Source: an uncultured bacterium (GTDB lineage Bacteria > CAZSTA01). From it: a DNA stretch of 38,199 nucleotides. Below, one piece after another: positions 10,272-37,176 of this stretch (its first letter is position 1; each line of letters starts with the position of its first letter). The stretch lies in the NCBI GenBank assembly GCA_964609495.1, contig CAZSTA010000009.1, positions 1 to 38,199 of the forward strand. The letters are read 5' to 3'. The notes beneath the pieces are model-generated. The model was not told where the DNA came from. It searched no databases and saw nothing but the letters and a program-made list of their open reading frames with translations. The translations under genes and the position numbers were made by a program.

Positions 10272-11102
10272 GTGAAACTATGTATATGTTCCAAGATCCT
10301 TCAGGATAAATCTCTCGAAGATGCGGTAAGGATATCTGCTGAGATAGGATATAACGGTATCGAACTATTCGGCCTACCTAATCATTTACCAGTTGATATC
10401 GATTTGAATCGAGTCAAAGATCTAAGGAAGCTAGGTGATGATTTGGGGATGAAGGTCGTTACCCTAGCAACTTATGTCGGCGGTTATAGTCAACTAGGAG
10501 ATGAGGAGTGCGCCCGCCAATTGGACGATTTCAAGCGATATGTCCAGATAGGTCATATCTTAAACTGTGATCTGATAAGACAGGGTCCCGGTGGTCCAAC
10601 TCCAGATAAGGCTAGAGAGGATCATTGGCAGAGGAGCGCTTATTGGCTACAAAAGGCGGCGGATTATGGATTGGCTAATGAGGTTAATATCGTGTTGGAA
10701 AATAATTTCGTGTTAGTCGCCACTGTCGATTCCACTCTGAAGCTGATTCATCTCATAGACCGTCCTAACGTGGGGATCAACTACGATCCGGGGAATATCT
10801 ATCGGGCAAGCGAGCAATATGGAGTGGAGGCGGTCAGGCGTTTTGGTGAATTGATCTTTAATGTGCAGATAAAAGATGCAGATAAGACCGATGGTGATAA
10901 TTGGAAGCTTCTGCTGGGAGAGGGCAAGGTTGATTATCTCTCTATCTTCAAGGCTTTGAAGAGGATGGAATACAAGGGTTACTATTCCGCCGAATCTCAT
11001 AAAGAGCCGACCGAGGGGCTGGATACTGTCGGAATAGCTCGTCATGAATATCAGAAGATAAAAGAGCTTTTGGAGAAGGCTGAAGAAGAATATGATGTCT
11101 AA
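10272..11102 (+). CDS. Sugar phosphate isomerase/epimerase (xylose-isomerase-like TIM barrel)
   Basis: GYNGIEL, IVLEN, GINYDPGN, VQIKDA, LGEGKVDY, YSAE motifs. GTG start at 10272 after GAAGGAG. Confidence 0.85.
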   Translation: MKLCICSKILQDKSLEDAVRISAEIGYNGIELFGLPNHLPVDIDLNRVKDLRKLGDDLGMKVVTLATYVGGYSQLGDEECARQLDDFKRYVQIGHILNCDLIRQGPGGPTPDKAREDHWQRSAYWLQKAADYGLANEVNIVLENNFVLVATVDSTLKLIHLIDRPNVGINYDPGNIYRASEQYGVEAVRRFGELIFNVQIKDADKTDGDNWKLLLGEGKVDYLSIFKALKRMEYKGYYSAESHKEPTEGLDTVGIARHEYQKIKELLEKAEEEYDV

Positions 11103-12807
11103 CAGCGATATAGCTAGTATATTTGAGGAGATAGCGGATATCCTCGATATAAAGGGGGAAAGTTCCTTTAGGACTCGCTCCTATCGGAAGGTAGCCCAAG
11201 TGCTTGTAAATCTAACGGAAGATGTAGGAGAGATATACGAGCGAGGCGGATTGGAGAATATTCCTGGGATAGGCAAGAGTTCCGCCTCCAAGATCGAGGA
11301 GCTGTTGAAGACTGGAAGATTGAGATTTTATGAGGAATTGAAATCACAGCTTCCCTCTGGATTATTGGACTTCCTAAAGATCCCGGAGGTGGGCCCAAAG
11401 ACCGTTAAGTTGATATATGATAATTTAGGGATAGAAACCTTAGACGAGCTAGAGAAGGCGGCTAGTCTGCATCGGTTGAGGGAACTTCCGCGAATGGGGG
11501 CGAAAAGCGAGGAGGTTATACTGAAGGGGATAGAGCTTCTGCGAAGTAGAGGCGGAAGGATTCTGTTAGGTGTCGCTCTCCCCATAGCCAGAGATATCGA
11601 GGGTGTAATCTCTCCTTATGTGGATAGATCGATCTCGGCTGGTAGCTTGAGGAGGATGAAGGAGACCATCGGCGATATAGATATTTTAGCCTCGACAGAT
11701 GATCCAGATGAAGTTATGCGAGTATTTACCGAGATGGATTCGGTCGAGGATATCGTGGCTAAGGGGGATACTAAATCGAGCGTGATCTTAAAGAAGAACG
11801 ATCTCCAAGTCGATCTTAGAGTGGTGAAATCGAATAGCTTTGGAGCAGCTTTACAATACTTCACTGGCTCGAAGGAACATAACATTAAGTTGAGAACTTT
11901 AGCTCTGAAGAAGGGATTGACGATCAACGAGTATGGGGTATTCAAGGTTGATAGCAAGGAGAAAGTAGCGGGGAAAAGTGAGGAGGAGGTTTATTCTTCC
12001 CTTGGGTTGCCCTACATCCCTCCGGAGTTAAGAGAGGATAGGGGAGAGATAGAGGCAGCGTTAAATGGTGAATTACCGGAATTAATAGAGCTTGATGATA
12101 TCAAAGGGGATTTGCATGCTCATTCTGATTGGAGCGATGGTGTGAATTCCCTGGAGGAGATGATCGAGGCGGCTAAGAAGAGGGGCTACGAGTATTTAGC
12201 TATCTCCGATCATTCCAAATCTCTGAAGATAGCCAATGGGTTGGATGAGAAGAGGCTGAGCGAACAGATGGAGATTATAAGAGGGTTGAATGAGGAATCG
12301 GAGGGTTTTAAACTCCTAACCGCTACCGAAGTCGATATCCTAGCCGATGGCAATCTGGATCTAGCGGATGAGATATTGAGTCAATTGGATGTAGTTATAG
12401 CCTCGGTGCATAGCAACTTCAAGCAGGATAAGAAGACTATGACCAGCCGAATGATCAAAGCGATGGAAAATGAAAATGTGGATATAATAGGTCATCCCAC
12501 TGGTCGATTGCTGGGGAAAAGAGCACCCTACGAGGTTGATATGGAAAGGTTAATAAATGCCGCCGGGGAGACAGGAACTTGTTTGGAGATAAATGCCTAT
12601 CCTGATAGATTGGACCTTAATGATATGCACTCCCGAATGGCTAAGGAGAAGGGAGTTATGTTAGCCATAAGCACCGATTCTCATAGGACGTCAGAATTAG
12701 CCTTAATCGAGTTCGGAGTAGCTACCGCCAGGCGAGGATGGTTGGAGAAGAAGGATGTGTTAAATACTCTTAGTTTAGAGCCACTACTCAAGAAACTAGA
12801 GAGATAA
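11092..12807 (+). CDS. polX: DNA polymerase/3'-5' exonuclease PolX (PolX + PHP domain)
   Basis: HhH IPGIGKS, AGSLRRMKETIGDIDIL (canonical DxD), VDLRVV, YFTGSKEHN; PHP motifs DLHAHSDWSDG and STDSH. Confidence 0.97.
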   Translation: MMSNSDIASIFEEIADILDIKGESSFRTRSYRKVAQVLVNLTEDVGEIYERGGLENIPGIGKSSASKIEELLKTGRLRFYEELKSQLPSGLLDFLKIPEVGPKTVKLIYDNLGIETLDELEKAASLHRLRELPRMGAKSEEVILKGIELLRSRGGRILLGVALPIARDIEGVISPYVDRSISAGSLRRMKETIGDIDILASTDDPDEVMRVFTEMDSVEDIVAKGDTKSSVILKKNDLQVDLRVVKSNSFGAALQYFTGSKEHNIKLRTLALKKGLTINEYGVFKVDSKEKVAGKSEEEVYSSLGLPYIPPELREDRGEIEAALNGELPELIELDDIKGDLHAHSDWSDGVNSLEEMIEAAKKRGYEYLAISDHSKSLKIANGLDEKRLSEQMEIIRGLNEESEGFKLLTATEVDILADGNLDLADEILSQLDVVIASVHSNFKQDKKTMTSRMIKAMENENVDIIGHPTGRLLGKRAPYEVDMERLINAAGETGTCLEINAYPDRLDLNDMHSRMAKEKGVMLAISTDSHRTSELALIEFGVATARRGWLEKKDVLNTLSLEPLLKKLER

Positions 12808-14532
12808 TAAATACTTTCCGCCTCCTCCCGAAGAGAGAGCGTGCTTATAGTCCACATCCTTTAGGAGCCACTCATCCTCATCGATCTTAACCGAGATCAC
12901 CTTATAGGGAATCTCAAATTCTAAAGTTTCCTCCCTCTCATCGATCATAATCTTAGGATATCGCACTATTCCCAGCTCATGCTCTACGCTGATATCGATT
13001 GGCATCTTAAAGACCTTGCCCTCCTGAATCTGGACTATGTCGATCGAGACCTTATAGCTTCCCTCCTCCTGAGAAGTTTGATGGAACGAGACCTCATAGT
13101 GAGGATATCCACTCCGATTATACCACTCCTCGAAAAACCATTTCAGATCCCCTTCCTTGTAATGCTTCTCCATAATCACTCTGAAATCATCGAAATCGGC
13201 TTGCTTCCCCTGATAAGTAGAGAATATATCCTTCGTCCCCGCGAAGAATTCTTCATCTCCTAGAACATAGCGGAGCATATTTATCACCATAGCGCCTTTG
13301 GCGAAGACGATTTCCCCATAGGCAGGGGTATTATATACTTCGGGTGAGGAAATGGGAGCATCCTTCTGATGAGCGATATCAGCTTTATAGATCTGGGAAT
13401 AGGAATTGGTGTATTTCTTTAAAATCTCTTTCCCAGCTATATATTCTGCGAATAAGGTATCTGTATATTGAGCCATTCCCTCCGCCAGAACATTGGGGAA
13501 AGCTACACTATAAAAATTCCATTGGTGTGAGATCTCATCCGCTATCACCAGTGGCCCTTGAGAAGCTTCTAGGATGCTCATATCCTCGAAGTCATAGCTG
13601 ATATCTCCCGTGAAGTATTCGGTTGAGAGCAGAATTAGAGTGGGCAAACTTACCCCTGCTATTCCCTTCTCTGGCAATACGTGGGCAATCGCTAACTTCT
13701 CGAAGGCGAAGGGCCCGAAGATATCCTCATAGAAAGTTACCACATCTTCTGCTACCTTCAATCTCTGCTTCGCTATGCTTGCCTCCCCTGGATAGGCATA
13801 GATATCGATAGGAGTACCAGAGGGAGTAACCGCTCGGAATCTCTCATATTTAGCTATAGCGAAGCCGAAGGGAAGGGAACGAGGAATAGATATTCCTGTT
13901 ATCCAGTGGTAAGTGGTGAGCCCTCTTTCCTCATCTTCGACTATACCAACTAGTTTCCCCGCGCTTACTGCGACATATCCAGCAGGAACGGTTATTCTTA
14001 TATCTCCAGTGGCATCATTCATCTCATCTACAGGATAATATGTAATATGGGAGCTATAGGCCGAGTCCTCCCTGATCTGACCAAAGATGTTATATCCTGG
14101 GACAGGGGTTTTTTCTAGAAAAAGGATATAATCGTCCTGGTGGTAGCTCATTTCTAGCTCTATCTCTTCCTCTTTAGAGAGAGAAGAATCTAGCTCGATA
14201 GTCAGCTTCTTTACATCTCCCCCAAGATCATCCAAGGTGAAGTTTAACTCTTTATCTCCTCCCTTGATCCGATCTATATCTAGATCGGATATTAAAAATT
14301 TGAGGATCTTCAGATCATCTTTTTTGCTCAGGACCTTAAAATTATCCCTAGCAACTAAGCTATGAGCAGGAGGATCGATATTAAGGGATAAAGAATGATG
14401 GATGATCTTGGCATATTTGCTAGGGGTGAGGAGAAGTTCCTCTTCCTCTGATTCAGCAAGGCATATCGCTCCTATACTCATAATAGCTATTATAACCAGA
14501 GATTTTATAATGTGATTCTTCAACTTCATCAT
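12796..14532 (-). CDS. Secreted M1-family aminopeptidase-like protein with a non-canonical metal motif
   Basis: Signal peptide; FGPFAFEKL, IADEISHQW, LAEGMAQY, KGAMVINMLRYVLGDEEFF, LKWFFEEW, and a C-terminal Ig-like region, all typical of bacterial M1 peptidases. Confidence 0.8.
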   Translation of the reverse strand: MMKLKNHIIKSLVIIAIMSIGAICLAESEEEELLLTPSKYAKIIHHSLSLNIDPPAHSLVARDNFKVLSKKDDLKILKFLISDLDIDRIKGGDKELNFTLDDLGGDVKKLTIELDSSLSKEEEIELEMSYHQDDYILFLEKTPVPGYNIFGQIREDSAYSSHITYYPVDEMNDATGDIRITVPAGYVAVSAGKLVGIVEDEERGLTTYHWITGISIPRSLPFGFAIAKYERFRAVTPSGTPIDIYAYPGEASIAKQRLKVAEDVVTFYEDIFGPFAFEKLAIAHVLPEKGIAGVSLPTLILLSTEYFTGDISYDFEDMSILEASQGPLVIADEISHQWNFYSVAFPNVLAEGMAQYTDTLFAEYIAGKEILKKYTNSYSQIYKADIAHQKDAPISSPEVYNTPAYGEIVFAKGAMVINMLRYVLGDEEFFAGTKDIFSTYQGKQADFDDFRVIMEKHYKEGDLKWFFEEWYNRSGYPHYEVSFHQTSQEEGSYKVSIDIVQIQEGKVFKMPIDISVEHELGIVRYPKIMIDEREETLEFEIPYKVISVKIDEDEWLLKDVDYKHALSSGGGGKYLLSL

Positions 14533-14603
14533 ATTATCCCCTCCTTATAAGAAATTAACTTGAAGACGCCTGACATTCTGGCTCTGGGTCTTCGGACGAT
14601 TCT

Positions 14604-15302
14604 CTATAACAGTTTTTTGGCGATGAAAAGCAATGACTGACCGATTGGGGGGCCAGTTATCTTCTCAAAAAAACGGAAGAGAGGCATCAGTCTGTTGTAA
14701 AGCAACAACTGATCAGTTGGTAGAATATTTCTGTGTAATATCTTTCCATTTAAGAACCATCCAAACATACCGAAGAAATTCATATAAGCATCTTTCTCAA
14801 TTATAAATCCCTTTACCTCTAATCGCTCGCTCAGTTCTCCCCTTGAATATCGCCGATAATGGTCAAGTCCCATATCCAATGTTCCATAAAGCATTCTTAA
14901 AGCTGGCACAAAAAGAATAAGCCTTCCCTCGGGTTGAAGTATTTCGTGCATATTCTCTAAAGCTAGATCATCATCCTTTATATGCTCAAGAACATTTAGA
15001 CAGACGATCGTATCTATACTTAACTCCCCGAGCTTAACGATCTCTCTATCCTGTATATCAAAATGGAAGGCTTGAACTTTACCAGGAGGAAATCTATCCT
15101 TTATCGTTTTAATATGTCTCTCAGAGATATCTATAGCGATGAGTTCTTCACAGTGATCGAGCAAGTGATAAGTGAGATTCCCGCTTCCACATCCCATCTC
15201 CAGAACTCTCTTGCCTAGGTATGGGCGGAAGCTGTCGAATAGCCACTCGTTGAATTTATCCATTTTATTGATGCGACGCAGTGTTTCCTCTCCGATATCC
15301 AT
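14604..15302 (-). CDS. Class I SAM-dependent methyltransferase
   Basis: VLEMGCGSG motif I, LNVLEHIKDD, LQPEGRLILFVPA, HYRRYS. Confidence 0.9.
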   Translation of the reverse strand: MDIGEETLRRINKMDKFNEWLFDSFRPYLGKRVLEMGCGSGNLTYHLLDHCEELIAIDISERHIKTIKDRFPPGKVQAFHFDIQDREIVKLGELSIDTIVCLNVLEHIKDDDLALENMHEILQPEGRLILFVPALRMLYGTLDMGLDHYRRYSRGELSERLEVKGFIIEKDAYMNFFGMFGWFLNGKILHRNILPTDQLLLYNRLMPLFRFFEKITGPPIGQSLLFIAKKLL

Positions 15303-15303
15303 C

Positions 15304-15996
15304 TTAATCCATCAACCTATACTTTATTAAAGCGTAAATAGCTCGTAAGCCATCCTTCCAATTTATCTTCTTTCCCTCCGAATATTCCCTCCCCGTATAT
15401 GATATAGGGACCTCGTATATCCTTAATTTTCTCTTTAGAACTTTAGCGGTGATCTCGGGTTCAAAGTTAAACCTATTGCTCTTTATCTTAATATCTTTGA
15501 TAACCTCCGTTCGGAAAGCTTTGTAGCAGGTCTCCATATCGCTTAGGATAGTATTAAATAGGATATTTGCTATACCAGTTAGGAGCTTATTTCCCATATA
15601 GTGCCAGAACATAAAGCATCTATGGATTCCCAGAAACCTCGAACCATAGACTATATCTGCTTTCCCTTCGATTATGGGTTTTATCAAGATACGATAATCC
15701 TCTGGATCATATTCTAAGTCGGCATCCTGAATGATCACGATATCCCCATTAGTATAATTTATTCCCGTTCTTATCGCGGCTCCCTTCCCCTGATTCTTAG
15801 AATGATAAACTACTCTAAGATCACTGTTAAATTTCCCATTATCTCTGATATCCTTTATGAGCTCCCTTGTTCCATCAGTAGAACAATCATCGACAATGAT
15901 TATCTCCTTATCCAATTCGACTGCATCTACTCTATTGATGATCTCCCTTATGGTATTTACTTCATTATATACCGGTATGATAATCGATAATCTCAT
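15304..15996 (-). CDS. Glycosyltransferase family 2 (polyprenol-phosphate glycosyltransferase/DPM1-like)
   Basis: LSIIIPVYNE, VDDCSTDGT, NQGKGAA, IQDADLEYDP, SDMETCYK. Confidence 0.93.
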   Translation of the reverse strand: MRLSIIIPVYNEVNTIREIINRVDAVELDKEIIIVDDCSTDGTRELIKDIRDNGKFNSDLRVVYHSKNQGKGAAIRTGINYTNGDIVIIQDADLEYDPEDYRILIKPIIEGKADIVYGSRFLGIHRCFMFWHYMGNKLLTGIANILFNTILSDMETCYKAFRTEVIKDIKIKSNRFNFEPEITAKVLKRKLRIYEVPISYTGREYSEGKKINWKDGLRAIYALIKYRLMD

Positions 15997-16118
15997 ACTT
16001 TATACCTTTTTCTGATAATCCGCTCTAAAATCAATCCAGAAAAGTTCGATGATTTTTAGGGGCAAAAAAACCTCTGTCAGTGATGAAATCTCAACTTTGT
16101 TATCTACTGACACTAACT

Positions 16119-16147
16119 ATTATATAAAGTCTTTATCTAAATGTCAA
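16119..16147 (-). promoter_or_regulatory. Sigma70 promoter for the GT2-methyltransferase operon
   Basis: Perfect TTGACA-17bp-TATAAT on the minus strand. Confidence 0.8.
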
Positions 16148-16403
16148 GAGCAAACATAACTAAAAAGCATATAGAATTGTGTTGGGGATAGGTTAATATA
16201 TAATATTAGAGCATAAATGATTTTTACTCCGAGGGTTTATGAGAGGCAAAGTATATCTCCGAGCGTATCCATTATTAATGGTTGTTGATAATCCTCAAAG
16301 CAATGTGTGTAGGGGATGTTTATCCTTAGTTATCACTTTCAGCGGAATTTTATTAGAAATTCTCCTTAAAAATCCCTTAGCCCGAAATTTTACATACTTA
16401 GAT

Positions 16404-16437
16404 AAAAAACCCCCGTCCTGAAAAGGACGGGGGTTTT
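16404..16437 (-). terminator. Rho-independent terminator of the cold-shock gene
   Basis: Minus strand CCCCCGTCCT-TTTC-AGGACGGGGG followed by TTTTTT, about 20 nt after the stop. Confidence 0.9.
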
Positions 16438-16459
16438 AGGTAACTAGGTTCTATCGCCT

Positions 16460-16672
16460 TTACGACAATTTAACGACGTTATCCGCTCTTAATCCCTTGG
16501 AACCGCTCACGATGTCGAACTCGACTTCCTGATCTTCTTCCAAGGTCCTGAATCCACCATCATCCTGTTGGATAGCAGTGTGGTGAACGAATAGATCTTC
16601 TCCCACTTCCTGCTCAATAAAACCATAGCCTTTACTTGCGTTGAACCACTTGACTTTTCCTCTATTTCTCAA
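16460..16672 (-). CDS. cspA: Cold-shock protein (CspA family)
   Basis: [15 protein letters not shown] (RNP1), DLFVHHTAI (RNP2); TTG start after AAGGAGGT. The paralogue letter is uncertain. Confidence 0.93.
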
Positions 16673-16901
16673 CTGTCTACCTCCTTTTTAATATATCGAG
16701 GTTATTTCCTCGATCGTGCCTTATATGGCTTCATAGCACGGGATATCCTTCGGCCTCCAGGAGGTAGCTTTACAGACCTACTTAAGGTTCTCCAAGCTAC
16801 TCATAACCTGATTATCTTGAAATAACTGCCAAAGTGAGTACTTAAGCCTTTTCTACAATCTCAAATACCTTTTACGACCACATGCTATCCTGCCTAACTA
16901 T

Positions 16902-16930
16902 ATTATACCAAAATTTATATTTTTTGTCAA
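16902..16930 (-). promoter_or_regulatory. Sigma70 promoter for the cold-shock gene
   Basis: Perfect TTGACA-17bp-TATAAT with extended -10 TG. Confidence 0.85.
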
Positions 16931-17129
16931 GTTTTTCTATAATTTATTTTCCTCTTATTTTAGATCATCTCTCCTCTCTTATCTATCCCTCTTTTTCTTA
17001 AAGATCTCCTCATTTTATATACATCCCTGAAAGGGAGGTTGTAAATGGTAAGCAAAGTCTGATAGAGAGTGGATAAAAGGGAGGTGGTCTTACAAAAGAA
17101 GTATTATGTCTCCAATCTTATATGCATTT

Positions 17130-18014
17130 TTAAGCTCTCTCTCTCAACCTAGGGTTGCTTACCTCGTCGGAACCCAGATGCATTAAGTAGAGAGAGATGA
17201 AGAGGCATATAAGAGTTATTACCGGTGTTCCCCACCACCACCACATACCTCTAAAAACTGCCGAGTAGCTCAGAGACCAATAGATCATCATTCCCAGCGT
17301 CATTTCACCCTGCGGTCCCAAACCCAAAAGCGAAAGTCCCGACTCCGTGAGAATCGCCGCTAACGTGGCGTTAATAAAGTTGGCGCCCATCCAGGGAAGC
17401 ATATTGGGCATCAGTTCTTTAATTATAATCTCGAATCTGGACATTCCCGAAAGCATCGCTATATAAACGAAGCCCCTTTCCTTGAGGGAGAGCACCTGAG
17501 CCCTGATCTGCCTTGCAGGCCAAGACCAGGAGAAAAGCGCTATGATCAGCGCCATAGTCCTTACTGAAACGCCTTTCACCAAAGAAGCTATCAATATCAG
17601 AAAGAGCAAGGAGGGGACCGATAGGAACACATCTACTAATACCCTCAATATAGAATCTGGTATTCCTCCGTAGTATCCGCTTGTAAACCCTATTAATGCT
17701 CCAAGCAACGTCCCAATGATAGCCGCGATCAACCCGATTTGGAGGGAATTAATAATAGCGGTTGACATTTGAACAGCGATATCTCTTCCCAGGGAATCTG
17801 TGCCTAGAATATGTTCTCTCCCTGGAGGAAGGCTGGGTTGGGATGATCCTGTAAGACGATATTCGGAGGGCATAACTTGGCGAGCTATTATCCCTCCTAA
17901 AAGGATGATCATAAATATTGTGAAACCGAGAAGGAACTTTTGATTGGTGAATAAGGACCATAGAAAACCCCTTCTTATATTCCTCGACATCGCTGATAGA
18001 CTGGCATATAGCAT
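17130..18014 (-). CDS. Opp/Dpp-family ABC transporter permease (OppC/DppC-like)
   Basis: HILGTDSLGRD, RAQVLSLKER, terminal NPRLR. Confidence 0.92.
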   Translation of the reverse strand: MLYASLSAMSRNIRRGFLWSLFTNQKFLLGFTIFMIILLGGIIARQVMPSEYRLTGSSQPSLPPGREHILGTDSLGRDIAVQMSTAIINSLQIGLIAAIIGTLLGALIGFTSGYYGGIPDSILRVLVDVFLSVPSLLFLILIASLVKGVSVRTMALIIALFSWSWPARQIRAQVLSLKERGFVYIAMLSGMSRFEIIIKELMPNMLPWMGANFINATLAAILTESGLSLLGLGPQGEMTLGMMIYWSLSYSAVFRGMWWWWGTPVITLICLFISLYLMHLGSDEVSNPRLRERA

Positions 18015-18023
18015 ATTTGACCC

Positions 18024-19031
18024 TTACCTCCTTCCGTATCTGATTCTCGGATCGATGAGGGGATAGATAATATCTATGGTAAAGTTGGCTATGGCTACAG
18101 AGAAGATAATCAGCAGGACTCCCCCCTGTATCAAGGGAAAGTCGAGTCCGGTTATAGCGTTATATAGAAGCCATCCGACGCCGGGATAGGCAAATATCAC
18201 TTCGGTGATAATCGCTCCCCCAACGATACGACTGATGGAGAGTGCCAGACCTGTCACCTGAGGGAGAAGGGCGTTCCTGAATGCGTATCTCCAGAGTATC
18301 CGACTGTTGGATAGCCCCTTAGCCTCAGCTAACGTAATGTAATCCTCACCCTTCAGTGATATTATCATACTTCTCATACTTAGAAACCACCAGCCGAGGG
18401 AGACCAAGATAATGCTCAGAGCTGGGAGGAAAGAGTGCCAAACTATATCGAGAATGAATTGAAGGGAGAATGTTACCTGTGAGCCAGGTGTATATCCCCC
18501 GGATAAGGGAAAAACTCTCCATAAAAATGCTAGAAGGAATACCAGGACTATGGCTAAAATATAATATGGTATGCTATATAATATGAGCGCTACAGGAACC
18601 AGAAATTTCGATATCTTTGACTCACTACCTCTCCAACCGGCAAACGTCCCGATAATGGTTCCCAACACCCAGCTTATTATCGTCGTTACGGAGAGCAGCC
18701 CTATCGTCCATGGTAAAGCTCTTATCAGAAGCTCGGAGACCCTCGAGGGGAAGTTGGCGATGGAATATCCCAAATTGCCTCTGGTGATCTCTCTAAGGTA
18801 GCTTATATACTGAGTAAGTATATCCTTGTCGAGGCCAAACAATCGCTTGTATTCCTCCACTAGCTCCGTAGCTCCCAAAGATCCTCCCATCGCGGAGAGC
18901 TTGAGAAGAACGGCGCCGAGGGGATTTCCGGGGACGAGCCGGGGCACGACAAAAACTATGGTCACTGAGAGGAAGATCGAGACTATGAAGATGATAACTC
19001 TTTCGATAAGATATTTAGAATACGAACTCAT
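18024..19031 (-). CDS. Opp/Dpp-family ABC transporter permease (OppB/DppB-like)
   Basis: RLVPGNP, GNLGYS, EDYITLAEAKGL, RNALLP, IDPRIR. Confidence 0.93.
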   Translation of the reverse strand: MSSYSKYLIERVIIFIVSIFLSVTIVFVVPRLVPGNPLGAVLLKLSAMGGSLGATELVEEYKRLFGLDKDILTQYISYLREITRGNLGYSIANFPSRVSELLIRALPWTIGLLSVTTIISWVLGTIIGTFAGWRGSESKISKFLVPVALILYSIPYYILAIVLVFLLAFLWRVFPLSGGYTPGSQVTFSLQFILDIVWHSFLPALSIILVSLGWWFLSMRSMIISLKGEDYITLAEAKGLSNSRILWRYAFRNALLPQVTGLALSISRIVGGAIITEVIFAYPGVGWLLYNAITGLDFPLIQGGVLLIIFSVAIANFTIDIIYPLIDPRIRYGRR

Positions 19032-19065
19032 TGCTATAGAGTTCTCCTTCCTGTGCTAGTCGCTT

Positions 19066-20046
19066 TTAATCATTGATAGAAGTAAGTACACTATTAAAGA
19101 GCTTATCCCAACTCTCGTCGGAGTACATAATCCTATTACATTCTATAAGATGTTTATCTTCATGAACTTCTCCTAAATAAGATAATTCTTCTCCTTTCCT
19201 TTTGAGGGTATATTCAGATGCCTTGAAAAACCCACATATATATCCATTAATAGCTATTTTTTCTTCATACGCTGTTTCTTCTATAAAGTGGACTAAATCT
19301 ACAATATTATTATTTTCATCCAAATCATCTTTCATCCTGCTTCTTACAAAATTTAGAAGTTTTTTTAAGCTACTTATATGAGCAAGTATCTTCATAAAGA
19401 AATCTTTAGGTAAAGCAACTTTAACGAAAATCCCATATTCTGCTGTTATAGGAGCCTCTGCCCAAATACTTTCGAGCGTATCTGTCGATTTAATACTCAC
19501 AATATTCTTTGAATTAACTATATCTGACTTAAAAGTAGAGATATCAGTGCTAATTCCCCAATCCAAATTTATGTCTCTATCAAACTTTTGTTTTGCAAAC
19601 TTCCTAAAAGCGATTTCCCCTATTTTGCCAATAAATGTATCGGAAAAGATTTGTTCAAAATCCCGCTTCTTAGTTCTGCGGGTCTTTTCAGTCATAGTCG
19701 CTCTCGTCTCACCTTTAAGCATTTTGTAGGGCATTGCTAGTGAAAATATCATAAGTTTCAAAAGATCTATCTCATCTGGTCCTATTTCAACAGTATTCGG
19801 AGCAACCTTCTCTTCTATCCAATTTTTGATTCTTTCAATATCTACAATGTATTTTTCTCTACTTTTGTGTCTTTCGATATCAATGATATTCCATTCGTTT
19901 ACTCTTAATGCAGATAAGATAAGGCTAAATATACTCTCTTCGTTATAGTAAATTGAAGATTCTCTAAGATCAGAAATATAATCGTTCAATTTCTCTCTAG
20001 TCTTACTTCTACTCTTCAATGCTGTTTTAGTAAAAATTATATTCAC
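19066..20046 (-). CDS. Putative type II restriction endonuclease (PD-(D/E)xK-like)
   Basis: GTGA overlap with the upstream DNA methyltransferase; AT-rich. IGKIGEIAF helix followed by SDIV and SIKS resembles a divergent E...D...(S)xK active site. Confidence 0.55.
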   Translation of the reverse strand: MNIIFTKTALKSRSKTREKLNDYISDLRESSIYYNEESIFSLILSALRVNEWNIIDIERHKSREKYIVDIERIKNWIEEKVAPNTVEIGPDEIDLLKLMIFSLAMPYKMLKGETRATMTEKTRRTKKRDFEQIFSDTFIGKIGEIAFRKFAKQKFDRDINLDWGISTDISTFKSDIVNSKNIVSIKSTDTLESIWAEAPITAEYGIFVKVALPKDFFMKILAHISSLKKLLNFVRSRMKDDLDENNNIVDLVHFIEETAYEEKIAINGYICGFFKASEYTLKRKGEELSYLGEVHEDKHLIECNRIMYSDESWDKLFNSVLTSIND

Positions 20047-21364
20047 AACTTTTCACCTATAATTAGCCATTCCCCGGGTATCCCACTTGGGTTCTCATTT
20101 AGCCTATTTTTGGAAAGATGTCTGCTCTTTATAACATCAAAAAATGTATATTGAACATTAAAATTATTCTGAATCATCATCTCTGAAATTATATCCTTAG
20201 TTTTTATATGCCATCCAAATACTCTTGGTTCTCCTATAAGTATTGCTAATATCCCTTTCTTCACCAATAATTTCTCAGATAACTGGACAAAATATAGCAT
20301 ATCATTGAAATATGCCATAAAACGAGAGATATTCTCTTTGGTTTTGAAGTTCTTGGAGAGTTTTTCTATAGTATGAAGAGTATTTTTATATGGTTCGATC
20401 TTTAAAAGTTCTGAATTTAGATCACAAAATGACTTAAATTTCTGCCCTATTTCCTTCTTTGTCAGTTTTCTGATAGAGTCGTCATTCACCATATCTAACC
20501 AGTACATATCGATTTTTGTAGACCGGAAATATTCTTGAGCGTAAATATACGGGGGAGAAGTTATTATACAGTCCACCATCTCCCTTGGCAGTACTCGTTC
20601 TAATTCCTCTATACTCTTATCCAGAACCATTAAGAATTGTCCTTCGGTGTCATCCAATGAAGTTACTTTTTTGTATTCCGTTTTCATCTTTGAATTAAGC
20701 TGGATAATATAATCCAAATATTCTTCTGCCTTCTTCAGTAACTCTTTTCTCAATAACTCTTCACCATATTCATTAAATTTAGCTGTTAGTTCCTTCATCC
20801 TTATCATTTTTTGTTTCGACCTAAACAATTTTGGAGATTTATCCTCTCCGTAAGAATATTTTCTTGAGATATATAGAGCACTCGCTTTTAAAATATTCTT
20901 TATTTCGCTTTCGTTTTCATCGATATTATGAATACCACTCCATATCTTTGTTATTACCGATAGTATATCTGCGGGATACCAATAGTCTAAATTTTTCCAA
21001 TTCGGGACAAATCCCAAATTGCTTTCAAATATAGAGTCTATATGATGTTTTAATTTATTTATATAAGTAAAATAGTGTTTGGGATTTAGCTTTAGAGTCT
21101 TTATATCTATTAAAAATTTTGTTAAAGGGTTAATATCGTTTGATATATTGCTGTTTCCAGTTATTAGGCTTTCTACTGCCGTTGTTCCTGATCCAGCGAA
21201 AGGATCTAAGATTATCTTTTCCTTCAAGTTAAATGTCTTTATAACAAATCTAGGAACCTGGGGAATAAATTTGGCAGGATAAACATTGTGAATAGCATGC
21301 GTTAAATAAGTAGTACTTGAGATATGTTGTTTTAACGCTTCTCTTAGATTAATCAGATTTCTTG
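20043..21364 (-). CDS. DNA methyltransferase, N4-cytosine type (alpha motif order); 5' end lost in the assembly gap
   Basis: THAIHNVYPAKFIPQ, ILDPFAGSGTT (motif I), DINP, then IITSPPY (motif IV; SPPY suggests m4C). Confidence 0.88.
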
Positions 21365-21464
21365 NNNNNNNNNNNNNNNNNNNNNNNNNNNNNNNNNNNN
21401 NNNNNNNNNNNNNNNNNNNNNNNNNNNNNNNNNNNNNNNNNNNNNNNNNNNNNNNNNNNNNNNN
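21365..21464. other. Scaffold gap (100 N; true size unknown)
   Basis: Exactly 100 n characters. Confidence 1.
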
Positions 21465-23224
21465 CCGCCGACCCACTCTCCCGTCTCAGGAGACTGATAT
21501 CCGCATATAACAAGGTTCCAGGTTGCCCACCAACTCACCGGCATATTCCAAGGATTCTCCGCCGAAGGCCATCCAACCCAATAAGAGGTATTGAACGGGA
21601 CCAGGGCGGGAGCCTGAACCACCGGTATCGCCGGAAGGTCCTCAAAGTATATCTCCATCGCTTGTCGGAAGAGCTCTTTGACCTTATCCACATCACTGGG
21701 CGGGGTGGAAGCCATCTCGTCCACGATCGCATCGAACTTCGGATTCTTATACCTGAACGAGTTTCTCTCGAACCAGGGCGCCGGTTCTCCCAGAGGCACA
21801 TAGAATTTGCCGTGGAAGAGCTCTAGGTTGTCGAACACGTCGGTATCCCCGGGGCAGAAGGAGTGAAGCTTGATATCATACTCTCCCCGCAATATCGCAT
21901 CTGATAGGACGCCTGCACTCAGAGGTTTAACCGTTACGTCGATTCCCGCGGCTTTCAACTGATCCGCCAGCACCGCGGATACCTTCATCTCTTCCGCGCT
22001 ATTCGAATCAGCTAGATAGACCATCGAGAGTCTGGTTCCGTCCCCTGTGACCCATATACCATCTGCTCCCTTCTTGAAGCCCAAGGACTTGAATATCTCC
22101 TCCGCCTTCGCAGGGTCATACTTCGTCGTTGGATACTTGTCGCGCAGATCTTGGATATATTCGAAATAGGACTTCAATCCGCCATAGTCTGGATAGAGTC
22201 CCCAAGCCGGTGAGGTGGTGTTTTCATATGCCAGGTTGACGATCGCATCCCTGTCGATCAGGTAGGATATTGCCCACCGCACCTCTTTCTGGTCCCAGGG
22301 CTTCTTCGCATTCTGGACCATTAGCAACCTCGGGCAGGGGTCTAACCAGGCATAAGGGGCCTCATCATACCAGGCTGTGACATTGGGGTTTCTTTTCGCT
22401 ACCTCCAAGTAGGTGCCTAAGGAGAGAATTCCTATGAAGGGCGTATCGACGTCATTTGCCGTCAGGGCGATGGCGACGCTGGTCTCGGGTCCAAAGTATT
22501 GGAAAGCCACATACTTCGGGGCGGGCTTAACGCCGAACTTCTCCGTGACCCACCAGTCGTCTCTCCTCTCATAGATGATCGAGGTCTCGGAGGAGCTTGA
22601 GAGCTTATAGGGGCCGGTCCCAATGGGTGGATAATTCTTGAACTTTAGGGGATCTTCACCCTCCCATATATGCTTGGGAAGGATCGTAAGTCCTCCCCAA
22701 ATCCTCACATCGGGGTAAGCTTCTCTGATCATATGAAAACGTGGGTTTGCTTCTTTTAGCACCAATTTAACAGTGTAATCATCGATCTTCTCCACGGAAC
22801 TTACCCACTTGGTGACCTCGGCCGACCAGGTCATACCCGGATTCTCCATCAACAGTTCATACGTGAAAACGACATCATCGGCCGTGAACGGTTCTCCATC
22901 GCTCCACTTTACCCCTTCCTTAAGCTTGGTCGTTATGCTCTTGAAGTCAGAGGAATACTCGTAACTGTCAGCCAGCCAGGGGATATACTCCCCGGTCTCC
23001 AGATTGATGTAGAAGAAATACTCGAAGATCATCTGGTGCATACCCGTCCCAGATCTCGAGACACCTGGAGCGTAGATATTGAAGTTCGTAGGATCGGCGA
23101 CCCTGCCACTTAAAGCGATATAGAGCGTCTCCTCCCTAGGCAGGCGCTGAGCGGACGCATCCTGGGAGATAACTCCGAACACTAGAAGAACACTCAAGAT
23201 AACGATTACTTTGTTGAGTCTCAT
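21465..23224 (-). CDS. Family-5 (Opp/Dpp) ABC substrate-binding protein, probably oligosaccharide-binding; last codons fall in the gap
   Basis: Signal peptide; LPREETLY, WSDGEPFTADDVVFT, PIGTGPYKL, YWVGWPSAENP. Resembles Thermotoga-type sugar-binding family-5 proteins. Confidence 0.9.
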
Positions 23225-33653: not shown

Positions 33654-36014
33654 TTATATCTCCTCCTCAAAGTGGCTATACTTAGCTGTGCTTATATTCC
33701 CCTCCTCATCCTCGTATTGAAAGGTTTTAGTGAAGAACTCACCTGTTAAGGTAACTACTTTACCATCCTCTAATTTCACCTTCGTCCCTTTATCCAGCTT
33801 CCTTACCCTCAGCTCCTTCTCTAAATGAGGTGCTTCCTCTAATACCTCCTCCTCGCTTCTGAGGATATATTCTCCACTCTCTCCTCTTTCAAAGTAAGGA
33901 TTATATCCGTTCATCTGGAGGGCTAAGGCTAGACGCTGTTCAGGAGTGGCTTCCTCAAACGTGAGTTTGACTAGCTCCTCAAAGTTATAGCTTTCACCTT
34001 CGACTTTAAACCAAATGTCAATGGGATTTGCTTGATGTAAGATACGAGTCGTCTTCTGAAGTAGCTTGTTATGGAGATAGACCTTCAGCTCGTTAATATC
34101 TATTAGTGGCTCTAAAGGAAGCTTTATCCCTGTATTCTCCCTCACCACTTCCTTAAACCAGGTATCCTGTCTCTTCTTTTGAACTATCGCCTTGAATACC
34201 CCTTCCTCATCGGGTGGCTCGATGCAGATTCCCACTCTTAGTGCGTTATTCTCATCCTTCATGACTATCACATCTCCTCTTTCCACTCGGATGGAGAGCG
34301 CAGCTTTCCTAAGTCTGGCGTATTCATCCACTTTCCTCCTGGATCTAGGGGTATATATTATCTGTCTAGCCATCCTTCCCTTATCGAAGTAGATCATATC
34401 GGCTCTTAACAGATTGGATAGCTGACTCCGCTGGGCTTTTGAGAAGCCATCTCCGAACCAGAGACGGGCGAGTTCAGGTTCGGTATATCCCCTCCTCTCC
34501 CTAAGTTCAAGCAGTTGTTCCCATAGTTTGGGAAGATCATCTTGGGTGATAGTATCCTTTGATACTTTCACCTCACTTATGGTGCTTTTAGGAGGGCGGG
34601 AGGGAGTTGAAGCTACCGATATCGTTTCAACTTCGCCTCCTTTATATTCCCCACCTGGAGCTAGAGTTAGGGGATCGAAGCTCATCCCATTATCAGGCTT
34701 GATGACTTTGAAGTCCTTCAATTGAGAGGCGAGATTATCTATCGCGGTCTCATCCCCATGCACTAGCACTACTGAATGGGGGTTCAACTGCTTTATCATA
34801 TTCGCTATCTGATTCCTATCCGCATGAGCGGAGAGGTTATACTTTGCTACTTCGCAATTTATCGTCGTCGGAGTATCTTCCAAGATTATAGTTTGTCCTC
34901 TCTCCAACTCCAGTAGCTTCCTCCCCGGAGATTCCTCGTCTTGATAGCCCGTCATCAGGATAGCGTTTCTTTCGCCTTGAGCTATTTTCCTAGCATAGAA
35001 GGGAGAAGGACCTCCTGATAGCATCCCCGAGCTAGAGATGATACAGCAGGGATCCCCATCTACAATGCTCTTCCTGGAGGTCGCAGAGACCTTTATCACC
35101 TGTTGTCTTTGCCTATCGAAGAATATAGGTTGTTGAGTGTTCTTCACATAGTTCTGCAATTGCGAACTTAGATCATGCCCCAAATTCTCATAGATATCAC
35201 AAGCTGATCTCACCATTCCATCAACATACATTGGGAACAGGGGTATAGTATTTGAGTTCTGCATCGCTTTCAGGATCAAAATTACCTCCTGGGCTCTTCC
35301 CACGGCAAAGGCTGGGATCAGAACAGTTCCCCTTCTATTTATCACCTCAGCTACCGCAAAGGCTAGTTTCCTCTCCTCTCCCTTCCTACTCTCGTGCAAT
35401 CTCTCTCCATACGTAGCTTCGGAGATAACAACGTCTGGATGAAAATCGGGCTTTATCGCTCCTCTGAGTGTCCTTTGATTAGTAATCGAGAAGTCACCAG
35501 TTACGAGGACGTTTCCCTCTCTCGACCCAATGAGAATGAAGGATGCTCCTAAGATATGTCCAGCTGGATGGAAGGTGATAGAGATATCCCTATCTGGGAA
35601 GGGTTTAAAAGTCTTATCGAAGGGAACATGAGCGGTGTGATCGATCATCGCTTCCACTAGGGATTGATCGTATAGGGGTATCTCCTGTTGATCCTCAAGA
35701 AACTTACTCTCCATAATCTTTACCGCATCTTTAAGCAGAAGCTCTATCAGATGAAAAGTCGAATTGGTGCAGTGAATATTCACCTGGGGAAATCGCTGAT
35801 AGACCAGGGGTAAAGCTCCACTATGATCCATATGGGCATGGGTCAGTAGTATCAAATCTAGCTTCTCGATCCTATCGAGAAGAGGTTTTGGACCTATCTC
35901 CTTCGGCGGATTCATTCTTATCCCCGCATCTATTAATATTGATTTTCCCTCTATCTCCAAGAGCAAGCAACTTGCTCCTATCTCTTTTGCTCCTCCAAGT
36001 GTAGTTATCCTCAT
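33654..36014 (-). CDS. Metallo-beta-lactamase/beta-CASP nuclease (RNA-metabolising type) with a ~330-aa C-terminal extension
   Basis: LGGAKEIGASC, THAHMDHSG, AGHILGA, TGDF, SEATYG, FAVGRAQE, SSGMLSGG, LSAHAD, LVHGD. The extra C-terminal domains are not part of the beta-CASP core. Confidence 0.9.
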   Translation of the reverse strand: MRITTLGGAKEIGASCLLLEIEGKSILIDAGIRMNPPKEIGPKPLLDRIEKLDLILLTHAHMDHSGALPLVYQRFPQVNIHCTNSTFHLIELLLKDAVKIMESKFLEDQQEIPLYDQSLVEAMIDHTAHVPFDKTFKPFPDRDISITFHPAGHILGASFILIGSREGNVLVTGDFSITNQRTLRGAIKPDFHPDVVISEATYGERLHESRKGEERKLAFAVAEVINRRGTVLIPAFAVGRAQEVILILKAMQNSNTIPLFPMYVDGMVRSACDIYENLGHDLSSQLQNYVKNTQQPIFFDRQRQQVIKVSATSRKSIVDGDPCCIISSSGMLSGGPSPFYARKIAQGERNAILMTGYQDEESPGRKLLELERGQTIILEDTPTTINCEVAKYNLSAHADRNQIANMIKQLNPHSVVLVHGDETAIDNLASQLKDFKVIKPDNGMSFDPLTLAPGGEYKGGEVETISVASTPSRPPKSTISEVKVSKDTITQDDLPKLWEQLLELRERRGYTEPELARLWFGDGFSKAQRSQLSNLLRADMIYFDKGRMARQIIYTPRSRRKVDEYARLRKAALSIRVERGDVIVMKDENNALRVGICIEPPDEEGVFKAIVQKKRQDTWFKEVVRENTGIKLPLEPLIDINELKVYLHNKLLQKTTRILHQANPIDIWFKVEGESYNFEELVKLTFEEATPEQRLALALQMNGYNPYFERGESGEYILRSEEEVLEEAPHLEKELRVRKLDKGTKVKLEDGKVVTLTGEFFTKTFQYEDEEGNISTAKYSHFEEEI

Positions 36015-36016
36015 TT

Positions 36017-36943
36017 TTACCTCTTTCCATTTGAACCTTTAGTAGATTTCACATTCTCCTGGAGAGCTTTCAAGGTCTTCTGGACATATATCTGAGTGGT
36101 ATTCAAGCTCTCGTGTCCCAAGATATTGGCTAAACCTACTAGATCATTATTGTTTTGCTCCAGATAGTTATAGGAGAAGGTATGTCTTAGGAGATGAGGC
36201 CAAACTTTTATCCTAGCGAAATCAGCGTATTTCTTTACCACTTTCTCCACTCCATCCTTCCCTAAGGGACCCCGCTGACCAGCAAATAACCTTCCCTCGG
36301 TCTTATTTCTCTCCTCCAAATAGGCATTAAGCATCTTTCGAGCTTTTAAAGGGATTGGGATCTTTCGCTCCTTACCACCTTTGGCATGCTCTCCTCTAAC
36401 CAAAATAGTCCCCTTCCTCGGCGATAGCTCTATATCCTCTATTCGCAGGTGAACTAACTCCCCTAACCGTAATCCTGTGTAAAGCAAAGTGTAGATGATC
36501 GCTTTATCTCTCAGGTTTCCTCTCAGCTTTAGCTCCTTGAGCAACCTCCCAACCTCCCTGGTGTTCAAAGCTTTAGGAGCCAGAGCTTGCTTCCTAACAT
36601 AAGGGATATTCTTGATAGACTCATATATCTCCTTTCTTATCCCCTCTCCCCGCTCGTAGGCATACCTACAGTATCTCTTGAGAAATACCAGACGCCGGTT
36701 GATAGTAGCTGGGGAATATCCCTCTCTAAGACTGTAGCCTCGGAAATCGCTGACATCCAAGGCGGTCAGACGGGAGATATCGAATGGCTCCCCATTTGTC
36801 TGTTCATACCAGATGCTAAAGCGCTTCCAATCCTGTCGGTAGGAGTTGAGAGTAGCTTCTCTTCTTCCCTGCTCCCTAAGGGAAGCAAGGAATCCCTTAA
36901 GACGAATCTTCTCCCCTTCGGTGGCATAAGTTTCCTCAGTCAC
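36017..36943 (-). CDS. Tyrosine recombinase/integrase (Xer/resolvase-like) with N-terminal SAM-like core-binding domain
   Basis: Intact catalytic set: R (TGLRLGE), K (AKGGK), HxxR (HLLRH), H (LGHE), Y (TQIY). ATLNSY and SPATINRRL helices. GTG start after a G-rich SD. Confidence 0.93.
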   Translation of the reverse strand: MTEETYATEGEKIRLKGFLASLREQGRREATLNSYRQDWKRFSIWYEQTNGEPFDISRLTALDVSDFRGYSLREGYSPATINRRLVFLKRYCRYAYERGEGIRKEIYESIKNIPYVRKQALAPKALNTREVGRLLKELKLRGNLRDKAIIYTLLYTGLRLGELVHLRIEDIELSPRKGTILVRGEHAKGGKERKIPIPLKARKMLNAYLEERNKTEGRLFAGQRGPLGKDGVEKVVKKYADFARIKVWPHLLRHTFSYNYLEQNNNDLVGLANILGHESLNTTQIYVQKTLKALQENVKSTKGSNGKR

Positions 36944-37091: not shown

Positions 37092-37121
37092 ATTATACTG
37101 CTAAATTACTCCGTCTGTCAA
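37092..37121 (-). promoter_or_regulatory. Sigma70 promoter for the recombinase-nuclease operon
   Basis: TTGACA-18bp-TATAAT on the minus strand. Confidence 0.75.
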
Positions 37122-37147: not shown

Positions 37148-37176
37148 TTGACAAAATCCCGATTTAGTGGTATATT
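37148..37176 (+). promoter_or_regulatory. Sigma70 promoter for the downstream sugar ABC operon (divergent)
   Basis: TTGACA-17bp-TATATT with extended -10 TG. Confidence 0.75.

Follow-up and report, generated by a model that had tools for sequence, protein, structure and literature searches.

A window of 38,199 nucleotides (the whole stretch analysed here, positions 1 to 38,199 of contig CAZSTA010000009.1 in assembly GCA_964609495.1, from an uncultured bacterium of the lineage CAZSTA01) carries on its reverse strand an open reading frame (ORF), 33654..36014, that encodes a protein of 786 residues. This gene joins a beta-CASP nuclease core of the CPSF73/aCPSF1 type to a disordered linker of ~35 residues and a C-terminal tail of ~300 residues with four domains, two winged helices (wH1 and wH2) alternating with two small barrels (Table 1). 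The tail corresponds to the span 33654..34560 (residues 486-786 and the stop codon), for which the original prediction had proposed an internal duplication of winged-helix and barrel modules resembling those of RNase II and grafted onto a beta-CASP nuclease.

Table 1. Features of the nuclease gene and its immediate upstream region (positions in the window; residues of the 786-residue protein)
Feature	Position	Strand	Residues	Basis or remark
Beta-CASP nuclease core, with metallo-beta-lactamase (MBL), Beta-Casp and RMMBL domains	34665..36014	-	1-450	Pfam, motif patterns, solved relatives
Disordered linker	34560..34664	-	451-485	low predicted local distance difference test (pLDDT) values, composition, ratio of nonsynonymous to synonymous substitution rates (Ka/Ks)
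wH1 (winged helix 1)	34341..34559	-	486-558	
Connecting helix after wH1	34287..34340	-	559-576	model helix 559-574
Small barrel 1, five-stranded, KOW/SH3-like	34110..34286	-	577-635	predicted counterpart of the CSD-like/KOW-like N-terminal barrel of RNase II/Dss1
Long linker helix, barrel 1 to wH2	34029..34109	-	636-662	model helix 640-657
wH2 (winged helix 2)	33855..34028	-	663-720	second PF25255 stretch, match to RNase II wH profile
Connecting helices after wH2	33795..33854	-	721-740	model helices 721-727 and 729-738
Small barrel 2, five-stranded	33657..33794	-	741-786	
Xer-like tyrosine recombinase gene, directly upstream of the nuclease	36017..36943	-		Phage_integrase, 100.8 bits
Sigma-70-like promoter, TTGACA-18 nt-TATAAT, ahead of the recombinase-nuclease pair	37092..37121	-		12/12 hexamer matches

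A beta-CASP core with a repeated C-terminal tail

Pfam recognized Beta-Casp (87.4 bits, cut-off 27.7), Lactamase_B (60.6 bits) and RMMBL (54.2 bits, cut-off 21.6) in the core, and all seven motifs of the beta-CASP/MBL fold could be located by pattern, namely D29, H59xH61xD63H64, H153, D174 and motifs A (E199), B (H397) and C (H419), with H419 and G420 almost invariant in the family alignment. According to a study of aCPSF1, motif C holds His in RNA-processing members of the beta-CASP group and Val in the DNA-processing ones (PMC3095777); the core is read as RNA-type because of its His at this position. The closest solved cores by sequence are aCPSF1 (2xr1, E 2.8e-64), FttA (9bct, E 1.6e-52), Cas14 (8yhd, E 1.1e-47) and TTHA0252 (2dkf, E 4e-43), and every one of the 27 solved sequence relatives at E <= 1e-10 bears the name of an RNA-processing beta-CASP protein (aCPSF1, FttA, CPSF73/Ysh1, CPSF2 (CPSF100), INTS11, Cas14 or TTHA0252). 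Judged by its motifs and relatives, the core belongs to the CPSF73/aCPSF1 clade of beta-CASP metallo-nucleases and looks like an active enzyme of the RNA type.

The known enzymes nearest to the window protein differ from it in what is attached to the core. aCPSF1 and FttA (KH-KH-beta-CASP) provide the closest solved core and share the motif set and the His at motif C, but their additional domains are KH domains and N-terminal, and the window protein is bacterial. It is not an aCPSF1 ortholog, because its score with the equivalog model TIGR03675 (321.8 bits, with model positions 175-615 alone covered) lies under the cut-off of 580.2. TTHA0252 of Thermus thermophilus and other short beta-CASP RNases of bacteria, for which one source uses the name 'Cft2 family RNA processing exonuclease', have the same CPSF73-like core without the tail. 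Cas14 of type VII CRISPR systems combines a core of the same clade with a C-terminal add-on of its own; the Cas14 model NF045584 was rejected at 273.3 bits (cut-off 800), with model positions 1-435 of 612 matched and the C-terminal 177 unmatched, and no cas-family domain was found by Pfam among the 33 window ORFs scanned. RNase J, a beta-CASP RNase that likewise has a C-terminal accessory domain but belongs to a different clade, was also rejected (TIGR00649, 48.1 bits against a cut-off of 400, N-terminal MBL part only).

The linker consists to 37% of Pro, Ser and Thr, and its residues 452-485 have pLDDT values of 29-34 in an AlphaFold model of the full-length protein. Modelled by itself from an 11-row alignment (residues 484-786), the tail reached a mean pLDDT of 91.0 and a predicted template modelling score (pTM) of 0.80, and is therefore regarded as one packed unit. 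Each wH consists of three helices and a hairpin; wH1 is followed by a helix and the five strands of barrel 1, a long helix leads on to wH2, and further helices and the five strands of barrel 2 complete the tail, so that the order of secondary-structure elements is identical in both halves. The wH domains were classed as winged-helix folds. A Foldseek search of the PDB with the tail model yielded nothing at E <= 0.001, with weak rows for Tudor, KOW and WYL-regulator structures only, and the last fold-search values for the model fell within the range rated common.

Two similar segments had been pointed out after the Pro/Ser/Thr-rich linker, LWEQL...YTEPELARLWFG...YTPRSRRKV and IWFKV...YNFEELVKLTFE...YILRSEEEV, as well as the beta-rich stretches VERGDVIVMKDENNALRVGIC and LDKGTKVKLEDGKVVTLTG, and all these strings are indeed present in the translation. 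BLASTP of one tail half against the other returned nothing except a 6-residue overlap created by the chosen cut. A Smith-Waterman alignment of residues 486-660 with 661-786 scored 56, compared with 29.3 +/- 4.8 for 1000 shuffles (z 5.6, 0/1000 as high). Using profiles derived from 10 aligned family sequences, hhalign matched module 1 to module 2 at 96.1% (E 2.8e-9) over 89 columns, which comprise the winged helix, the next helix and the first barrel strand. The winged helices alone matched at 96.0% (E 4.1e-9), whereas the control pairs wH1-barrel 2 and barrel 1-wH2 gave 0.3% and 0.2%, respectively, and the two barrels alone were not significantly similar (2.4%). On the strength of these alignments the two-fold repeat is real, though weak within a single sequence, and the predicted significant internal repeat holds.

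Kinship of the tail with the accessory module of RNase II and Dss1

The Pfam family wH_RNase_II (PF25255) matched the tail in two stretches with E 3.5e-11 and 43.5 bits (39.9 bits for the whole protein). Set against the gathering score of 27, copy 1 alone lies above (32.3 bits) and copy 2 alone below (16.4 bits), and copy 2 of a relative at locus L009 scores 31.6 bits; 6 of 11 family members match PF25255 at E <= 1. From these profile matches, both winged helices are assigned to the wH_RNase_II domain family, in agreement with the resemblance to the RNase II/Dss1 winged helix that had been suspected. The barrel families PF23163, KOW and SH3 gave no Pfam match in any of the 11 family tails, and a PDB sequence search with the tail profile returned 0 matches at E <= 10. 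In the ESM Atlas, where the best score was 0.82, clusters with 16% PF25255-carrying members were hit, which we take as a lead only.

A structural study of Dss1 describes residues 92-170 as a KOW-like five-stranded barrel and residues 170-320 as a winged-helix (WH) domain whose first helix is long, and locates both at the funnel that forms the entry of the RNB RNA channel (PMC5758563). When 201 genomes were searched with PF25255, 12 contained a match (the window's own included), 8 of them over the cut-off. All 11 foreign proteins also carry an RNB domain, with HTH_RNase_II coming next in 8/11 and the N-terminal small barrel recognized as CSD_RNase_II in 1/11, and their domain order is that of Dss1: barrel, WH, HTH, RNB. 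Among 14 control genomes PF25255 was present in Synechococcus elongatus and Thermus thermophilus only and not in D. radiodurans, so that the mention of a Deinococcus RNase II in the original prediction finds no support.

A profile of barrel 1 and wH2 aligned colinearly with the N-termini of the 11 bacterial RNase II proteins over 139 columns (hhalign, 97.4%, E 9.8e-12), including VERGDVIVMKDENNALRVGICIEPP against VEKGTLIEFRLGGERRLATIDRPEG. Barrel 1, the long helix and wH2 occupy positions 93-241 of the tail model (protein residues 576-724), and the long linker helix, which lies inside the span aligned with Dss1, falls at the long alpha1 helix of the Dss1 WH domain. Taken singly, wH1 and wH2 matched the RNase II wH at 97.7% and 96.4%, barrel 1 matched the RNase II barrel at 29% (E 5.9e-4), and barrel 2 had no hhalign match to the RNase II barrel. 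Moreover, a HMMER search of 401 genomes with the tail profile retrieved 9 foreign genomes at E <= 1e-5. Eight of these hits are frames of 641-713 aa that match profile positions ~85-254, that is, barrel 1 to wH2 (E 2e-7 to 5e-12); four of the eight are RNB proteins from the PF25255 set. The ninth is a 1060-aa frame of a long beta-CASP form. In the window's genome, PF25255 matches copies of the beta-CASP gene only, and RNB has a single match, on contig C2, away from the nuclease gene.

These profile comparisons show the segment barrel 1-helix-wH2 to be homologous to, and colinear with, the barrel plus WH accessory module of RNase II/Dss1-type 3'-5' exoribonucleases. The predicted kinship of the modules with the RNase II winged helix and barrel thus stands, with their order revised: in RNase II the barrel precedes the wH, and its colinear counterpart is the central part of the tail. 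Dss1 and bacterial RNase II are composed of CSD_RNase_II (PF23163), wH_RNase_II (PF25255), HTH_RNase_II (PF23161), RNB and S1 domains, whereas the window protein has no RNB domain (no Pfam match in the 786 residues), no double HTH and no S1, its catalytic domain being beta-CASP. Its module is C-terminal on a disordered linker, while theirs is N-terminal and packed on the catalytic domain, and the tail adds a wH before and a barrel after the shared segment, with PF23163 matching neither barrel. The RNA-channel cassette of RNase II/Dss1 (KOW-like barrel plus winged helix) thus appears to have been recruited, in tandem, also by a nuclease of unrelated catalytic fold; this is a case of domain sharing between RNA-decay enzymes rather than a new principle.

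Family, constraint and origin of the two modules

A phmmer search of the tail against 1.84 billion representatives returned 10 proteins at E <= 0.001, one of which (P0005) was dropped from the family as a low-complexity false hit; the six full-length hits (782-939 aa) all contain a beta-CASP core. Of 8000 proteins scored in the core search (residues 1-450), 4672 reached E <= 1e-40, and many of the 120 core relatives listed are 750-1170 aa long; short relatives of 522-594 aa share, among the matches listed, 44-51% identity with the core. We then surveyed all 130 proteins gathered up to that point with the tail profile. Nearly the whole profile was matched by 17 proteins outside the set from which it was built (E 3.7e-85 to 3.7e-42), and 23 proteins of 990-1167 aa matched up to approximately position 246, i.e. 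wH1-barrel 1-wH2 followed by other sequence (E 4.5e-43 to 1.1e-16). Another 21, of which 20 are 814-861 aa and one 654 aa long, matched part of wH1 only (E 4.6e-8 to 5e-4), and the 522-594-aa forms had no tail-profile match better than E 3.2. Hidden Markov models (HMMs) of the individual domains, applied to 86 proteins of at least 640 aa, found the complete series wH1-barrel 1-wH2-barrel 2 in 24 proteins (23 of which had helped to build the HMMs, leaving one independent hit), wH1-barrel 1-wH2 in 12, wH1-barrel 1 in 5, wH1-wH2 in 2, wH1 only in 34 and no tail domain in 9.

By these matches the tail defines a small family in public databases, with wH1 alone common to more of the long-form relatives. 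It is represented in the cultured Ktedonobacter racemifer DSM 44963 and K. robiniae, in which experiments would be feasible, as well as in metagenome-assembled genomes labelled Bacillota and Vulcanimicrobiota. The tail-bearing form is rare, with 1 other carrier among 400 sampled genomes; these are related to the window's genome at the level of 'same domain' only, and the comparison therefore includes no near kin. A related-locus search with a 4-row alignment found 4 genome loci and 5 metagenome loci, and word-index searches with the tail returned the protein itself only, or 4 proteins, the indexes being too coarse for such divergence. The sources name the proteins generically ('MBL fold metallo-hydrolase', 'Cft2 family RNA processing exonuclease', 'RNA-metabolising metallo-beta-lactamase'). 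A literature search over the titles and abstracts of open-access papers and bioRxiv found no description of a beta-CASP protein with RNase II-type domains, and the Pfam accessions of the tail domains occurred in 0 papers in the same scope. The architecture, which had not been recognized in the original prediction, is accordingly rare and passed over in silence by the source names, but not unique, and the tail offers a domain definition for a few dozen proteins now named only 'MBL fold metallo-hydrolase' or 'Cft2 family RNA processing exonuclease'.

Selection was assessed by comparing the window copy with a complete second copy on a metagenome contig (L036), at Ks ~0.8. Ka/Ks was 0.083 for the core and 0.49 for the linker, and 0.065, 0.10, 0.12 and 0.12 for wH1, barrel 1, wH2 and barrel 2, respectively; the four tail domains are under purifying selection and, with values of 0.065-0.12 as against 0.083, about as constrained as the core. 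Twelve wH1 residues are kept in >= 80% of 25 family sequences (R508, E514, L515, G521, R529, L536, Y542, F543, R547, Y554, P556 and R557), the arginines R508, R529, R547 and R557 in 21-25 of the 25. In the rest of the tail, residues at this level of conservation are G580, K615, L647, V724 and, within wH2, W668, A696, L701 and P718, and within barrel 2, T757, G758 and G772.

As for the origin of the repeat, tandem duplication of a wH-helix-barrel unit is the simplest explanation, because of the 89-column repeat alignment and the identical secondary-structure order. The two modules could instead be separate RNase II-type acquisitions, or a module could have moved from beta-CASP proteins to RNase II, either of which we regard as rather unlikely. 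wH1 and wH2 resemble one another (96.0%) no more than either resembles the RNase II wH (97.7% and 96.4%), barrel 2 shows no detectable sequence similarity to barrel 1 or the RNase II barrel, and many long-form relatives carry wH1 only, or wH1-barrel 1-wH2 and then other sequence, all of which would fit separate origins. When 61 wH domains were placed in a tree, all 25 wH1 copies grouped together (support 97/93) and the wH2 copies fell into two groups, branching among the RNase II wHs without resolution; this too fits separate origins, but the tree rests on 71 columns and many of its forks are open. Separate acquisition has to accommodate a repeat alignment that continues past the winged helix, through the next helix and into the first barrel strand, as well as the shared order of elements. 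The tree indicates that both wH copies predate the radiation of the family; it does not settle duplication in place versus two acquisitions, or the direction of transfer between RNase II and beta-CASP proteins. Of the original prediction, the repeat stands, with internal duplication and grafting from RNase II as candidate histories.

Possible role of the tail and its genomic surroundings

CPSF73-like beta-CASP nucleases are widespread in bacteria, where to our knowledge TTHA0252 is one of the few to have been characterized. In aCPSF1, a tandem pair of flexibly linked KH domains has been proposed to keep RNA in place while the partner subunit cuts it (PMC3095777); the window protein shares the arrangement, its small tail domains also being in tandem and flexibly attached to the core, and RNA binding by its tail would be a further likeness. 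The closest functional analogies being this KH pair and the barrel plus WH funnel of Dss1, we hold with moderate confidence that the tail is a flexibly tethered RNA-handling platform for the nuclease. It would capture or select RNA substrates and pass them on to the catalytic core, possibly in trans to the other subunit of a dimer, and wH1, the most widely shared element, would be the likeliest contact surface; its four conserved arginines give a testable handle on substrate selection.

Several observations weigh against such a platform. Winged helices more often bind DNA, and the copies in the window's genome adjoin recombinase, replication and partition genes. Nor is the tail strongly basic: averaged over 25 sequences, the net charge is +1.6 in wH1, +0.9 in barrel 1, -1.8 in wH2 and +0.1 in barrel 2, and module 2 of the window protein is acidic (wH2 -6, helix -4, barrel 2 -5). 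The position of the tail relative to the core is not confident in the full-length AlphaFold model (pTM 0.56), and a predicted complex of core (1-450) and tail scored 0.00, which gives no verdict. In Dss1, moreover, much of the nucleic-acid face of the WH domain is reported to be blocked, and a WH helix contacts the Suv3 helicase (PMC5758563), so that the same fold also serves protein docking. The tail might accordingly be mainly a docking device that recruits the nuclease to an RNA helicase, RNA polymerase or the ribosome and binds no RNA itself, an alternative we consider doubtful. The contact of the kinked Dss1 WH helix with Suv3 and the binding of ribosomal particles and adaptors by the KOW-like arch domains of Mtr4/Ski2, both mentioned in the same source (PMC5758563), speak for docking, as do the acidic module 2 and the near-neutral net charges of the family. 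However, no conserved neighbour gene suggests a partner (the upstream genes are those of a BMC protein, an esterase, a recombinase or Rep-like proteins), and the four conserved arginines of wH1 suit phosphate binding at least equally well.

The surroundings of the gene bear on a second alternative, a DNA-directed role in the service of a mobile element (for instance in its processing or maintenance, or in conflicts) with the winged helices as DNA-binding domains. The stop codon of the Xer-like recombinase gene lies 2 nt ahead of the nuclease start codon, and the two genes stand behind the perfect sigma-70-like promoter. The junction is bridged by contigs from 3/4 public runs, the best-matching of which may be the source sample, and one run contig departs from the window precisely at 36019, the pattern that a copy with another gene upstream would produce; no RNA run is among the matching sequencing runs listed. 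The recombinase scores 155-172 bits with the XerA, XerC and XerD models, all under their cut-offs. The assembly holds two further copies of the nuclease, at C19 29811-31505 (83% identity, ending at the contig edge) and C321 3-1644 (82-89% identity, interrupted near residue 648), and the downstream neighbours differ from copy to copy. The complete C19-type locus on the metagenome contig (L036:846-7831) comprises, in this order, genes for HTH_17 (excisionase-like), a Phage_rep_O-like protein of 546 aa, the nuclease and ParA, with a PIN gene on the opposite strand, and a relative on contig L037 has a PIN gene and an RRXRR+HNH gene nearby.

Although this company would suit an element-borne DNA function, we judge the latter improbable: motif C carries the RNA-type His, the RMMBL 'RNA specificity' domain is present, and the close solved relatives (27/27) all bear RNA-processing beta-CASP names. 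Mobile-element genes are absent beside the relatives in other lineages at 6/6 loci (L009-L012, L039 and L040), which share neighbourhoods and are thus not independent, and PADLOC returned 0 families at E <= 0.001 for the nuclease and its two window neighbours, so that no defence model matches the protein. More remote still is the idea that the tail docks the nuclease onto a large machine and that mobile elements exploit this, the nuclease being carried by elements as a factor for RNA processing or transcription termination and governing the expression of element or host genes, which we think very improbable; if true, RNase II and beta-CASP enzymes would share a portable 'adaptor cassette' for one cellular docking site. 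A replacement of Rho by the nuclease was considered and is without support, a rho gene (657 bits) being present in the genome. As the source of the three copies, strain variants and identical repeats were likewise rejected, given Ks ~0.8 between the window and L036 copies and the different downstream genes. Direct or inverted repeats as candidate boundaries of an inserted element around 33.5-37.2 kb were rejected as well, the only two-copy matches being 14-27 nt long with 68-93% identity and taken as chance.

The neighbourhoods of the relatives are varied. At L009, L010 and L012 (labelled as two Vulcanimicrobiota and one Synergistia), the family member directly follows a gene for a two-domain BMC shell protein (L009:3971-4513), with NifU- and NifS-like genes upstream of the BMC gene in L009 and L010; L011, labelled Vulcanimicrobiota, has other neighbours, and the gene upstream of the L039 and L040 relatives encodes an esterase. 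A copy on metagenome contig L038 (89% identity) also has an ORF that ends early. The RRXRR+HNH gene of L037 (4713-6062, +), ~3 kb from the beta-CASP copy, encodes a protein of 450 aa with RRXRR (233.6 bits) and HNH, a pair that we take to be typical of IscB-type nucleases.

Within the window, a second, divergent promoter-like site (11/12) lies at 37148-37176 (+), facing an ABC permease gene, and a NIF3-family gene follows downstream of the nuclease. Rfam found no family in the window, the remainder of which is ordinary chromosome with genes for transporters, PolX and CysS. The PolX-type protein (HHH_8, DNA_pol_B_thumb and PHP; 11092-12807, +) adjoins an AP_endonuc_2 TIM-barrel gene. Finally, positions 14001-22000 have a low GC content (0.36-0.41 against 0.44-0.49 around) and contain genes for a GT2 glycosyltransferase, a methyltransferase and ABC permeases, together with a 477-aa ORF (20043-21476, -) that has a partial N6_N4_Mtase match only and overlaps the start of the next ORF.

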